Source of the DNA: Escherichia coli
GTDB taxonomy: Bacteria > Pseudomonadota > Gammaproteobacteria > Enterobacterales > Enterobacteriaceae
Reading direction: 5' to 3' (one strand)
NCBI RefSeq assembly: GCF_003334355.1
Contig: NZ_QOWP01000074.1
DNA length: 2,519 nt
This document shows positions 1 through 2,224 of this stretch, piece after piece; the stretch's first letter is position 1; every line of letters starts with the position of its first letter. A program made the position numbers and the translations under genes. The notes beneath the pieces are model-generated. The model was not told where the DNA came from, did not search any database, and saw nothing but the letters and a program-made list of their open reading frames with translations.

Positions 1-77
1 AAGGGCGAGCGTAGCGAGTGCCATTTACCCTTGACGACACTCCGGATAAAACAGGCTTGGCAGTGGTGGGGGGTGGC
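1..77. repeat. Terminal redundancy, copy 1: identical to 2443-2519. Indicates a circular molecule of 2,442 bp (wrap-around or assembler k-mer overlap).
   Basis: Base-by-base identity of the first and last 77 nt of the window. Confidence 0.95.
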
Positions 78-192: not shown

Positions 193-258
193 GCCCGCCG
201 GAGGTATCGCAATGCGCTCCCCCGCCTGGCTGAATGAATGCCGGAATCAGGGGGGAAC

Positions 259-1227
259 ATGGCGAACTACGCGATAATGCGCTGCAAAAAGCTGACGGGA
301 ATGGGAAGCGTGGCCAGCGCGTTGCAGCACTGCTACCGAGAGCGTGAGACGCCGAACGCTAACGCTGAACGGACACCAGAAAACTACTGCTCTGTGTCCA
401 AATCAACGGATCAGGCAATGGGGCGTGTGCGGGAGCTGCTGCCGGAAAAACGCCGTAAAGATGCGGTACTGGCCGTTGAATACGTTATGACAGCAAGCCC
501 TGAGTGGTGGAAAGAGGCCACACCACGGCAGCAGGCGGAGTTTTTCGCCCGCTCTGAGCAATGGCTGGAGAAGAAATACGGGAAGGATCGTGTTGTGGCG
601 GCGGTGGTTCACCGGGACGAGGCCACCCCGCACCTGTCTGCGTTCGTGGTGCCATTGACGCAGGATGGACGGCTGTCCGCGAAAGAGTTTATTGGCGGGC
701 GGTCAAAGATGCGTGAAGATCAGAGCACCTACGCTGAATCAGTAAAAAAACTGGGTCTTGAGCGCGGCATCGAGGGAAGCCGCGCCACGCATCAGACAGT
801 TCAGCACTACTACGAATCGATAAACCGTGGCACCCGTAGCCAGGTATCGATCTCGCCGGAGGCGCTGGAGCCGCGTGTATTGCGGAAGGGCATTTTCACC
901 AAAGACGTGGAAGATCAGGCAGCCATAGCCAAACGTCTAAGCCACGCAGTGAACGATGGCTTTGCAGGAACCATCGCTATGGCCTCTCAGAGCGCCCAGA
1001 ACGCAAAAAGAGCGCGTGAGCTACAGAAGACTATGGATGCGCAGCAGAAACGCCTACAGAGCGTCACAGAGCCTTTTAAGGGGCTTTCCAGAGAGCAGAT
1101 GACCGAAATCCTGATGATGGCTCAGCGGTTTAAGCAGCAAAACCAGGAAAAGGAAAAACAGCAGCGTATTGAACGTGAAAAACAGCGACAGACGCGATCG
1201 CGTGGCATGGGTGGTATGGAGCGTTAG
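259..1227 (+). CDS. mob: Plasmid mobilisation relaxase, Mob/Pre (MOBV) family, 322 aa from ATG 259. The ORF track's upstream in-frame ATG at 238 would add 7 residues (MPESGGN) and is less likely.
   Basis: N-terminus MANYAIMRCKK...SALQHCYRERE has the same layout as pMV158 MobM (MSYMVARMQK...FKHNER), including the HxxR motif with the conserved His. It also carries RKDAVLAVEYVMT and VVHRDEATPHLSAFVVP (HxDExxPH metal-binding motif), then GLERG and HQTV, all matching MobM from memory. A G-rich Shine-Dalgarno (AGGGGGG, 249-255) lies 3 nt before ATG 259. The long uninterrupted ORF is GC-rich and ends with a Q/E/K/R-rich C-terminal tail. Confidence 0.9.
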   Translation: MANYAIMRCKKLTGMGSVASALQHCYRERETPNANAERTPENYCSVSKSTDQAMGRVRELLPEKRRKDAVLAVEYVMTASPEWWKEATPRQQAEFFARSEQWLEKKYGKDRVVAAVVHRDEATPHLSAFVVPLTQDGRLSAKEFIGGRSKMREDQSTYAESVKKLGLERGIEGSRATHQTVQHYYESINRGTRSQVSISPEALEPRVLRKGIFTKDVEDQAAIAKRLSHAVNDGFAGTIAMASQSAQNAKRARELQKTMDAQQKRLQSVTEPFKGLSREQMTEILMMAQRFKQQNQEKEKQQRIEREKQRQTRSRGMGGMER

Positions 1228-1296: not shown

Positions 1297-1527
1297 TTAA
1301 TCATTCAGATGGTAATCATGTTTTTTTAAAATAGAAAAAGCTGCGTTTTTCTGCTTTGGTGACAAACCCTTAGTTGAGTATTTATTACCGCTAGTTCTAC
1401 GATATATGCTGTAAACACTGCTTAAAAAAGTACGCTCCCAAACAGTCAGAACCTCATTCTTTTTTAGTGAATCATGCAGCATTAGCCTGTCTACATTTTT
1501 AAAAAGTTTATCTTCAGCATTCATCAT
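1297..1527 (-). CDS. Hypothetical small basic protein (76 aa) of unknown function, probably co-transcribed with rep.
   Basis: The ATG-ATG start (1527-1522) overlaps the last 14 nt of rep in another frame. A GAAGG Shine-Dalgarno motif lies about 6 nt upstream on the - strand. Composition matches rep, and the stop is TAA at 1297-1299. No family recognised; the protein is Lys/Ser-rich. Confidence 0.4.
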   Translation of the reverse strand: MMNAEDKLFKNVDRLMLHDSLKKNEVLTVWERTFLSSVYSIYRRTSGNKYSTKGLSPKQKNAAFSILKKHDYHLND

Positions 1528-2017
1528 CCATTACCTTCGTCTGCACCGTTCTTCCATTGGTGTCATAACTGATCTTTAACTCAATTTTCTTTCTTCTTTC
1601 GTAAATTGATGGCCAGTCTCCCCGTGCAAAAAGAAAGGGGTTAGCTTCAAGTTCCCCACGCCCTGCCCGGAAGAATATTTGTTTATCTACAAGAGCCGCA
1701 ATTATGTTTTTAAAGGTCTGATATTCAATATGAACCCTGGGCTGTATGGTTTTTTCAAATCTAGTTTTTGATACAGACACAAACCCATCCCATCCAATCA
1801 GCATTGCCAATTGTAAAAGCACATCATTTTGAGATTTTGATAAACCATGAATCATCGCAATGTCTGCAATGTATAGCTTGACGTAGGGAGGTTCGGCTGG
1901 GATGGAAAAGGTCTCGATCTTAGAGTCTTGTTTTACCTCACCGTTTTCATCCATGTATGTATGCCGTTCAAGCCTAGAAATCTTTTTCGTATTCACTCCA
2001 GCCCCACGTTTCGCCAT
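1514..2017 (-). CDS. rep: Putative plasmid replication initiator (small, 167 aa, iteron-associated). Family not securely recognised; possibly a small RepL-like or winged-helix Rep.
   Basis: The ORF sits directly downstream, on its own strand, of a 22-bp iteron array and an inverted-repeat operator that reuses the iteron core. Its central segment (PPYVKLYIADIAMIHGLSKSQNDVLLQLAMLIGWDG) looks like a helix-turn-helix or winged-helix DNA-binding region. AT-rich codon usage matches the surrounding replication module. The function is assigned from context, not homology. Confidence 0.7.
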   Translation of the reverse strand: MAKRGAGVNTKKISRLERHTYMDENGEVKQDSKIETFSIPAEPPYVKLYIADIAMIHGLSKSQNDVLLQLAMLIGWDGFVSVSKTRFEKTIQPRVHIEYQTFKNIIAALVDKQIFFRAGRGELEANPFLFARGDWPSIYERRKKIELKISYDTNGRTVQTKVMDDEC

Positions 2018-2074: not shown

Positions 2075-2170
2075 GTACGATTAGTACTTGAGGTGAGTAC
2101 GATTAGTCCTTGAGGTGAGTACGATTAGTACTTGAGGTGAGTACGATTGGTACTTGAGGTGAGTACGATT
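2075..2170. repeat. Iteron array: four complete 22-bp direct repeats (2075-2096, 2097-2118, 2119-2140, 2141-2162) plus a partial fifth copy (2163-2170). Likely Rep-binding sites of the vegetative origin.
   Basis: The unit GTACGATTAGTACTTGAGGTGA is exactly tandem with 22-bp (two helical turn) periodicity. Copies 1 and 3 are identical; copy 2 has one change (A to C at 2108) and copy 4 one change (A to G at 2149). The array lies immediately upstream of the rep promoter region. Confidence 0.9.
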
Positions 2171-2203
2171 CTTCGCTCTAGCCCTTGGTACAAGCGGGTT
2201 CCC

Positions 2204-2224
2204 ATATCTATATCTATATATTAA
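2204..2224. other. Short AT-rich tract with TATATC-like repeats; candidate DNA unwinding element adjacent to the iterons.
   Basis: ATATCTATATCTATATATTA sits about 35 bp beyond the last iteron, on the side away from rep, the usual position of a DUE. It is only about 20 bp, so the call is weak. Confidence 0.3.

Follow-up and report, generated by a model that had tools for sequence, protein, structure and literature searches.

The small plasmids pHW126 (NC_019295), pIGRK (NC_011405) and pIGMS31 (NC_011406) share a replication module published as ssi-CR-IT1-4-IR/DR-rep, in which a single-strand initiation site (ssi) and a conserved region (CR) are followed by four iterons (IT), inverted and direct repeats (IR/DR) and the initiator gene, and in which the fragment carrying CR and the iterons serves as the origin and can be activated by Rep in trans. 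The four iterons of pIGRK and pIGMS31 are 20 bp long, separated by 2-bp spacers and bound by Rep, and they are incompatibility determinants, while RepM and RepR are known to repress their own promoters via the IR/DR elements. Here we analyse positions 2163-2224 of a 2,519-nucleotide stretch of Escherichia coli DNA (contig NZ_QOWP01000074.1 of assembly GCF_003334355.1; the whole stretch is called the window), where a short AT-rich tract lies beside an iteron array upstream of a minus-strand gene, rep.

The literature on the RepL group, to which these systems are related, describes rolling-circle (RC) or mixed RC/theta replication, and the RepL/pSN2 family is classed among the RC replicons, with a functional ssoA. 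A two-origin deletion assay has been reported for pHW126, and nicking has been reported for the Rep proteins of both pHW126 and pIGMS31. Studies of pIGMS31 have also described relaxase activity and mapped a nick to the rep-sense strand, upstream of CR, and two-dimensional gels of this plasmid showed intermediates of both the RC and the theta type. Given this published evidence on relatives, an asymmetric start would be likely in the window plasmid as well.

We propose, with a probability of about one half, that 2163-2224 is the double-strand origin core of a RepL-superfamily replicon with a pHW126-like architecture and asymmetric initiation. That the interval is an essential origin core is highly probable, and this part agrees with the sequence-only reading of the same stretch, which had already placed the interval in a replication origin next to Rep-binding repeats.

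Order and conservation of the origin modules

Read in the direction of rep, the module consists of an ssi (2402-2316), A/T tracts (2290-2236), an AT-rich box (AT box, 2224-2204), an inverted CR (2197-2175) and the iterons (2167-2083), which are followed by a degenerate fifth dyad and one operator dyad over the rep promoter (2079-2023) and, finally, by rep. The pHW126-like family has the same order, with AT-rich TAGA/TTAGA repeats between ssi and CR and with four iterons, IR/DR and rep after it. A common arrangement can, in fact, be followed through sixteen origins (the window clade, Col(MG828), Arsenophonus, Aeromonas and metagenomic relatives, B. cereus, S. mutans, pIGRK, pHW126 and pIGMS31), namely ssi hairpin, A/T tracts, a TAGA/GG(G)A box, CR, three to five 22-bp repeats, a promoter IR and rep. 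For instance, the RepL plasmids of B. cereus and S. mutans have AATAGAATAGAAGGGAGAA, then AACCCTTGATAT, four 22-bp dyad iterons, an operator IR and rep, and the Col(MG828) plasmids carry an ssiA-like ssi, an AT box and an inverted CR, as in the window. While iteron sequences are wholly different between clades, the core from ssi to iterons stays recognisable.

The AT box (2204-2224, minus strand) is the TATATC-like tract that had been described as 20 bp long and about 35 bp past the array; it measures 21 bp and begins after 33 bp. Its plus-strand bases are ATATCTATATCTATATATTAA, with two C, and the rep-sense strand reads TTAATATATAGATATAGATAT, flanked by C5 (2229-2225) and by GGGAACCC (2203-2196). 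As a tandem repeat alone, the tract is borderline: Tandem Repeats Finder (TRF) reports 2.7 copies of ATATCT at 2204-2219 with 100% matches and a low score of 32, and 2.2% of dinucleotide shuffles made from the AT-rich half contain a perfect tandem of at least 16 nt (period 4-8). A 21-mer with at most two G/C occurs at just three places in the plasmid, and the box is one of them.

Chance is nevertheless excluded as an account of the tract by its conservation among the related sequences. The box is invariant in six relatives (L001, L002, L003, L004, L025 and L026) despite their diverging flanks, and L004 keeps it unchanged though the adjacent 33 bp have diverged by about 45%. In the seven Gram-negative clade origins the box always lies 33-36 bp from iteron 1; in six distant Gram-negative RepL origins, related TAGA...GG(G)A boxes are found at this same distance before iteron 1, and boxes of this type are also present in the B. 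cereus and S. mutans plasmids (with AATAGAATAGAAGGGAGAA as the counterpart in both), in pHW126 (with TTAGATTATCTTAGGG) and in pIGRK. When an nhmmer profile was built from the 80 nt preceding the iterons of six distant origins, whose Reps are 25-43% identical and whose iterons are different, its sole significant match in the window was 2245-2172 on the minus strand (E = 7.6e-5), while a profile of the Gram-positive/L014/L016 group and another pooled from all groups gave no significant match in the window. Additionally, TAGA outnumbers TCTA on the rep-sense strand in seven origins and the reverse is seen in none, with seven ties (p = 0.008). A lineage-specific microsatellite was considered for the TAGATA duplication and rejected, as there is no copy-number variation among seven relatives; the B. 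cereus and S. mutans origins also have two TAGA units. Taken together, these comparisons indicate that the AT box is a conserved origin element under sequence-specific selection and, therefore, something more than easily melted DNA.

The 33 bp between the array and the AT box are no spacer but hold a homologue of CR (2175-2197, plus strand; GCTCTAGCCCTTGGTACAAGCGG). A position weight matrix (PWM) made from seven rep-sense CRs finds its best match in the plasmid at exactly this place (10.8 bits; 8 of 500 shuffles attain this score), and its top match falls at the same position and on the rep-antisense strand in six of the nine clade members, while L006, an Arsenophonus relative, reaches 16.3 bits (0 of 500 shuffles). 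The nhmmer profile of pHW126, pIGRK and pIGMS31 also has its best window match here, at 2166-2191 on the plus strand (E = 0.018). In the pHW126 family, CR is a segment of about 20 bp on the rep-distal side of the iterons; here too it adjoins them on that side, and these matches indicate that CR is present in the window clade but inverted relative to iterons and rep, whereas the CR of pHW126, pIGRK, pIGMS31 and the Gram-positive RepL plasmids is rep-sense. The CR of pIGRK is fixed by published mutations at 2236-2249 of that plasmid (PMC6854812 Table S2), and it aligns with CTCTAACCCTTGATATTACT in pHW126, CCAGCCCTTGCTATTACT in pIGMS31, GAACCGTTGATATGACT in B. cereus and AAACCCTTGATATAACT in S. 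mutans.

The CR of the relatives contains CTTGATA, which is the nick consensus of pC194-type RC origins; the window has CCCTTGGTAC in its place, within the palindrome CTTGGTACAAG. Positions 2181-2203 form an imperfect palindrome, CCCTTG-GTA-CAAG(C)GGG, centred on GTAC, which is the core of the iteron half-site. A role of this GTAC (2188, in CTTGGTACAAG) as a Rep half-site was rejected: the same iterons are found in L003 and L004, whose bases at this place are GGTGT and GCTAC, so that its presence in CR is probably coincidental.

On the other side of the AT box, the A/T tracts comprise two A5-N5-T5 elements (2236-2290), CTGAAAAACGGCATTTTT and CTGAAAAACTGCCTTTTT, which are 23 bp apart and belong to repeat family D9. 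L003 keeps their A5 and T5 arms with changed central pentamers, and similar phased tracts are found in L004, L006, L018, L020, pIGRK and pHW126 and, at this position, in most related origins. Lying between ssi and the AT box, they may represent bent or easily deformed DNA.

The initiator and its binding sites

TRF reports a 22-bp array at 2074-2170 (4.4 copies, 96% matches), which in its register ends with a 9-nt partial copy. Bases 2163-2170 do read GTACGATT, as the sequence-only reading had it, but to call them a truncated, degenerate fifth iteron depends on the repeat register chosen. The half-sites define four complete iterons, built as dyads and recurring every 22 bp (2083-2101, 2105-2123, 2127-2145 and 2149-2167), each of the form AGTACT-TGAGGTG-AGTACG (AGTACT-N7-AGTACG) with half-sites 13 bp apart, and GTACGATT corresponds to the outer half of the fourth dyad (2162-2167) plus 3 nt. 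The four dyads are presumed to be binding sites for Rep dimers. As in the pHW126-like family, there are four complete units with a 22-bp period; the window array has a further 9 nt. The iterons of the relatives are likewise 22-bp units, inverted repeats with 6-7-bp centres and a clade-specific sequence (e.g., TGTCAC-TGTGAGA-GTGACA, GTACCG-TGTAGA-CGGTAC and GTTATAG-ATTC-CTATAAC).

The degenerate fifth dyad is found at the opposite, rep-proximal end of the array (2060-2079, AGTCCT-N8-AGTACG), where its half-sites, AGTCCT (2060-2065) and AGTACG (2074-2079), are 14 bp apart; this additional base pair is kept in L003 and L004. The dyad overlaps the -35 of a putative rep promoter on the minus strand (2032-2060), which was read from the sequence as TTGACT (2060-2055), a 17-nt spacer and TTAAAT (2037-2032), and which the consensus promoter scan missed since it demands an A at position 2 of the -10. 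An operator dyad, AGTACT-N8-AGTACT (2023-2042), also with half-sites 14 bp apart, overlaps the putative -10 and is presumed to be the site of rep autorepression. Inverted repeats of iteron half-sites also precede rep in L005, L006, L007, L021 and L022. Consequently, the degenerate fifth unit is best described as a promoter-proximal autoregulatory site and not as the edge of an unwinding region.

The rep gene (1514-2017, minus strand) is predicted to code for a winged-helix initiator of 160-167 aa, depending on whether it starts at ATG 2017 or at the annotated GTG 1996. No Shine-Dalgarno sequence precedes the ATG at 2017, which is situated 14 nt past the operator. Scans of the 167-aa protein against Pfam, NCBIfam and PHROG gave no match, and the RepL profile (PF05732) did not match it even at E <= 10. 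By contrast with this failure of the current family models, to which the whole Rep clade of the window is invisible, tblastn shows that Rep is 25-40% identical to annotated RepL proteins, with E values down to 1e-24, among them proteins from Arsenophonus, Aeromonas, E. coli Col(MG828) plasmids, Bacillus, Priestia and S. mutans. Database relatives that are 36-43% identical to Rep carry PF05732, and six of the 20 aligned relatives match it at E <= 1e-3. The homology of the window Rep with RepL is, thus, transitive, because its relatives match the profile and the protein itself does not. Comparison of a Rep profile with the Reps of pHW126, pIGRK and pIGMS31 by hhalign gave E = 1.4e-4 and a probability of 53% over 111 collinear columns, while pairwise BLASTP against RepM and RepR was not significant (E 0.045-0.073); RepR of pIGRK carries a RepL annotation. 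An AlphaFold (AF2) model of Rep (mean predicted local distance difference test score, pLDDT, 70.6; above 84 for the core, 44-125) contains a single winged helix-turn-helix (wHTH) domain plus beta hairpins, and Foldseek relates it to MarR, OhrR, SarZ and further wHTH proteins, with no match at E < 1e-3. RepM has been described in the literature as a winged-helix protein, with which the model agrees. From these comparisons, Rep appears as a remote relative of RepL that is linked to the pHW126 Reps.

Like the pHW126-like family, the window has a winged-helix Rep that appears related to RepL, a low-GC rep module and no DnaA box. The differences are that the Reps of that family have 201-251 aa and a C-terminal coiled-coil tail, while the window Rep has 160-167 aa and lacks the tail, and that the window has an inverted CR, an extra 76-aa open reading frame (ORF) overlapping the end of rep and iterons with clear GTAC half-site dyads. 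The RepL (PF05732) plasmids (the pSN2 family, those of Bacillus and Streptococcus, and Col(MG828)) share with it a small initiator of about 160 aa, but the window Rep falls below the Pfam and NCBIfam thresholds and the iteron sequence is different; moreover, the Gram-positive members have a rep-sense CR and an ssoA-type single-strand origin, unlike the window.

The sequence-only reading had also noted that no DnaA box could be recognised, and this holds: scanning the window origin region with at most one mismatch finds none. A single 1-mismatch match exists in the window, at 1683 within rep, and the total count is at chance level. DnaA boxes are absent from 14 of the 16 related origins. The two origins with a 1-mismatch box are those of L005 (about 60 nt before iteron 1, GTATCCACA) and L014 (about 186 nt before it, TTGTCCACA), in both cases upstream of the AT box; because only 2/16 origins have them, at inconsistent positions, DnaA boxes are not a trait of the family.

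Strand polarity and the mode of initiation

The ssi (2316-2402; minus strand in its inferred active sense) resembles the ssiA of ColE1, with conserved flanks, CCGCTCGCCGCAG and GAGGAAGCGGAA, around a variable stem, and it folds into a hairpin of -21 kcal/mol (z = -3.5). It corresponds to the palindromic ssi found upstream of CR in the pHW126-like family and has the same relative position, although it is of the ColE1 ssiA-like and not of the pHW126 type. An ssi-like segment occurs in 434 PLSDB records, many of which are conjugative plasmids. The inner stem has been replaced, with the flanks kept, in L002, L003 and L025, while the more distant L004 has an almost identical copy, which suggests that the ssi undergoes modular exchange. 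The segments 5-60 of L012 and 1402-1504 of L028 belong to the same comparison.

The orientation of this element bears on the direction of synthesis. The motif is on the rep-sense strand in all seven related loci (7/7). In the ColE1-type plasmid pEC01, RNAI is on the minus strand (4402-4504, 100.5 bits) and, therefore, RNAII is on the plus strand, where the ssi motif is found at 5-60, just past the expected RNA/DNA switch. In ColE1, ssiA is the site at which the lagging-strand primosome assembles, and it becomes exposed when Pol I displaces the strand that carries it (PMC3167613). Since the ssi is rep-sense in the seven loci and the ColE1 motif is on the displaced, RNAII-sense strand, the fork would cross the window ssi towards rep, and the ssi should then be active on the minus strand. 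With a fork heading towards rep, the ssi would lie directly behind the start site, just as the single-strand origin (sso) does in RC plasmids, so that its orientation favours an asymmetric, RC-like initiation in the core formed by the AT box and CR. By the same analogy, its polarity would be wrong for priming the lagging strand of a fork that leaves the AT box away from rep.

A sequence of events compatible with this anatomy can be proposed. Winged-helix Rep dimers would fill the four dyad iterons, and the two promoter dyads with 14-bp spacing would provide autorepression. From 33 bp away, the Rep-iteron complex would distort the core of CR and AT box, of which the 21-bp AT box would open first. 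A nick or a priming event within the AT box or next to it would then start the leading strand, on the rep-sense strand, and synthesis would proceed towards rep. The displaced rep-sense strand would expose the ssiA-like ssi last, and PriA-dependent priming at this site would convert it to duplex. The AT box is, accordingly to this scheme, a candidate for the site of first strand opening or of leading-strand initiation; that the tract is where the strands first open, as the sequence-only reading had it, we consider possible, at somewhat below even odds. Opening there is plausible for a selected origin element, but the stability calculations described below place the weakest duplex elsewhere.

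Several observations weigh against this reading as a whole. A simplified model of stress-induced duplex destabilization (SIDD), with Benham copolymer energetics and one and two bubbles, gives the AT box an opening probability below 0.01, and the dominant site is 1290-1341, with p 0.9-0.99 at sigma -0.055 to -0.065 (0.99 at -0.065). This site is an AT-rich intergenic stretch between the convergent ends of mob and the 76-aa ORF, and it holds one of two promoter-like matches. An AT-box PWM built from other origins, with the GG run as anchor, ranks the tract sixth in the window, no better than shuffles. Because this PWM is non-discriminating, the cross-clade homology of the box itself relies on position, a collinear profile match and a crude polarity count, and it must be regarded as suggestive, not proven. 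Rep is linked only weakly to the pHW126 Reps (hhalign probability 53%, BLASTP E 0.04-0.07), and the conserved Tyr of the EPPYVKLY motif is a Phe in RepM. Rep gives no profile match to Rep_1, Rep_2 or Rep_trans, a nuclease motif cannot be recognised in it, and the Foldseek matches of its model include neither an HUH nor a Rep_trans fold. Single-strand folding of 2171-2230 shows no hairpin or cruciform potential in the region of CR and AT box (z ~0), and a cruciform-type nick site in this segment was consequently rejected, as no hairpin exceeds chance, unlike in many RC nick sites. Finally, the experiments come from relatives, none of them from the clade of the window plasmid, and they do not all point in the same direction: theta bubbles have also been seen for pIGMS31, and RepM nicked pUC18 non-specifically, which means that nicking may not be the real initiation chemistry.

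The RC double-strand origins of the pC194/phiX174 type, with HUH Rep_1 initiators, can also be compared. The likenesses are the CTTGATA in the CR of the relatives and a single-strand origin just upstream of the start region. The window, on the other hand, has CCCTTGGTAC in place of CTTGATA, a Rep without an HUH or catalytic-Tyr motif or fold, iterons, and a CR whose orientation is not fixed.

The unwinding site of the sequence-only reading could belong to a classical theta iteron origin, in which iteron-bound Rep would melt the TATATC tract as a DNA unwinding element, the helicase would be loaded there without DnaA, and theta forks would replicate the plasmid without a nick in either strand. 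Classical theta origins (pSC101, R6K gamma, RK2, F and P1 oriR) do resemble the window in their direct repeats, winged-helix Rep and adjacent AT-rich segment, and in the use of inverted half-iterons at the promoter of rep for autoregulation. In a recent survey, RepL is grouped with the winged-helix initiators. Incompatibility is determined by the iterons in pIGRK and pIGMS31, and theta bubbles were seen for the latter; the AT box adjoins the iterons, and no nuclease fold was found in Rep. The window Rep itself has no Rep_3 match, and one of its 20 relatives weakly matches Rep3_N (WH1, 3e-4). Unlike the classical origins, the window has no DnaA box, an AT segment of only 21 bp, no 13-mer repeats, a single winged-helix Rep instead of a WH1-WH2 Rep_3 protein, and a PriA-type ssi directly behind the core. 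The tract is short and, by SIDD, not an intrinsically unstable site, its conservation is sequence-specific and extends to Firmicutes, the ssi faces the wrong way to serve the lagging strand if the fork departs from the AT box in the direction opposite to rep, and the relatives of the plasmid show RC hallmarks; the fifth iteron of this proposal was also wrong. As Rep appears to be a remote RepL relative, and RC or mixed RC/theta modes are reported for that group, a classical theta unwinding element is unsupported here, and we consider it unlikely.

The AT box could also be the -10 of a Rep-activated origin promoter, similar to P_MS4 of pIGMS31 or P_RK3 of pIGRK, whose transcript activates the origin or primes synthesis, in which case the opening would be an RNA-polymerase open complex. 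Rep-activated promoters do occur close to CR within the minimal origins of pIGMS31 and pIGRK, the mapped nick is just upstream of the predicted -35 of P_MS4, and RepL-type replication in P1 depends on transcription. There are, moreover, several -10-like hexamers in the tract, for example TATATT (2217-2222) on the plus strand and TATAGA and TAGATA on the minus strand. This explanation is nonetheless quite unlikely, since there is no acceptable -35 at 16-18 nt, TAGA...GGGA is unlike a -10, and a consensus promoter scan of 2170-2300 on both strands, together with a terminator scan, finds nothing. Another account makes the box a site where duplex DNA is bound or bent by integration host factor (IHF), HU or a second binding mode of Rep so as to shape the initiation complex, with melting or nicking in CR or in the A/T tracts. 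It would fit the sequence-specific conservation and the fixed 33-36-bp spacing, RepM bound CR-containing fragments without similarity to iterons, and the CR of the relatives holds the pC194-type nick consensus. An IHF consensus with one mismatch is present at 2211-2223, but the window has six IHF-like matches and 11 of 200 shuffles reach six, so that this evidence is weak; the box is, besides, conserved in Firmicutes, which lack IHF, and the inversion of CR while ssi, iterons and rep keep their orientation argues against CR as a strand-specific nick site. We regard this last account as very improbable.

The plasmid and its significance

The ends of the window (1-77 and 2443-2519) are an exact repeat of 77 nt, and the window is therefore a complete circular plasmid of 2442 bp, read past its start. 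This plasmid is of the pKP13a type and abundant in Enterobacteriaceae: more than 30 complete PLSDB records match the window over its full length at >=99.6% identity, among them pKP13a and pS58-2k, from E. coli, Klebsiella, Salmonella, Shigella and Enterobacter. The relative labelled L002 is pKP13a itself (NZ_CP003996). Three genes make up its content, those of a MobV relaxase and of the 167-aa and 76-aa ORFs on the minus strand, both of which are annotated as "hypothetical". The MobV gene (238-1227, plus strand; NF041497, E = 1.8e-47) forms a mobilization (MOB) module beside the low-GC rep module, as it does in pHW126 and pIGMS31. A perfect 8-bp inverted repeat, CACTATCA-TCC-TGATAGTG, at 174-192, about 50-60 nt upstream of the MobV gene, is likely the hairpin of an origin of transfer (oriT) of the pMV158/MOBV type. 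The 76-aa ORF (1297-1527, minus strand) overlaps the last 14 nt of rep, and its protein has no match in Pfam, NCBIfam or PHROG scans. The predicted product is basic and conserved, and an Aeromonas relative has a 70-aa ORF at the same place; pSN2-family plasmids have been reported with a short ORF for a small basic protein of possible regulatory role.

A review lists pKP13a as a ColE1-type plasmid (Table 1 of PMC6764390). We reject this assignment, since the RNAI/RNAII pair is absent and only the ssiA-like segment is in common: an Rfam search of the window (E <= 1) finds no RNAI and no other RNA family, while the same search recovers RNAI at 100.5 bits in the control, pEC01. Another plasmid, pKP13b, had first been tried as control, but its RNAI match was below threshold and the ssi motif was absent. 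The shared ssi segment is probably what caused the misclassification.

Although plasmids of this 2.4-kb type are very common in clinical and farm Enterobacteriaceae, MOB-suite assigns no replicon type to any of the records inspected. The RepL/pHW126-like placement thus offers a testable origin map for a plasmid whose initiator is annotated as "hypothetical", and this map predicts both the incompatibility determinants (the iterons) and the logic of copy control (autorepression at two promoter dyads). In its first wording, as an AT-rich unwinding tract next to iterons, the finding is ordinary; the interest lies in a short origin core that is shared across phyla within one initiator family. As RepL-type initiators have no known nuclease motif and their replication mode is disputed, this short core, consisting of the AT box and a CR of flippable orientation beside a polarity-fixed ssi, narrows the search for the initiating event.

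CR flips while ssi, iterons and rep keep their polarity, from which we infer that the AT box is favoured over CR as the strand-specific element. It is conceivable, although doubtful, that the purine-rich TAGA-TAGA-GGGA box, and not CR, is the strand-specific start site of RepL replication, with a polarity fixed together with ssi, iterons and rep from Firmicutes to Enterobacteria. If this were true, CR would be an orientation-independent accessory site, and a winged-helix Rep of about 160 aa without a nuclease fold would launch asymmetric, RC-like replication from a box of 21 bp, with the help of a nuclease or primase recruited from the host or through an unrecognised kind of nicking. The pKP13a-type plasmid would then be a convenient E. 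coli model for the question of RC versus theta replication in the whole RepL superfamily.

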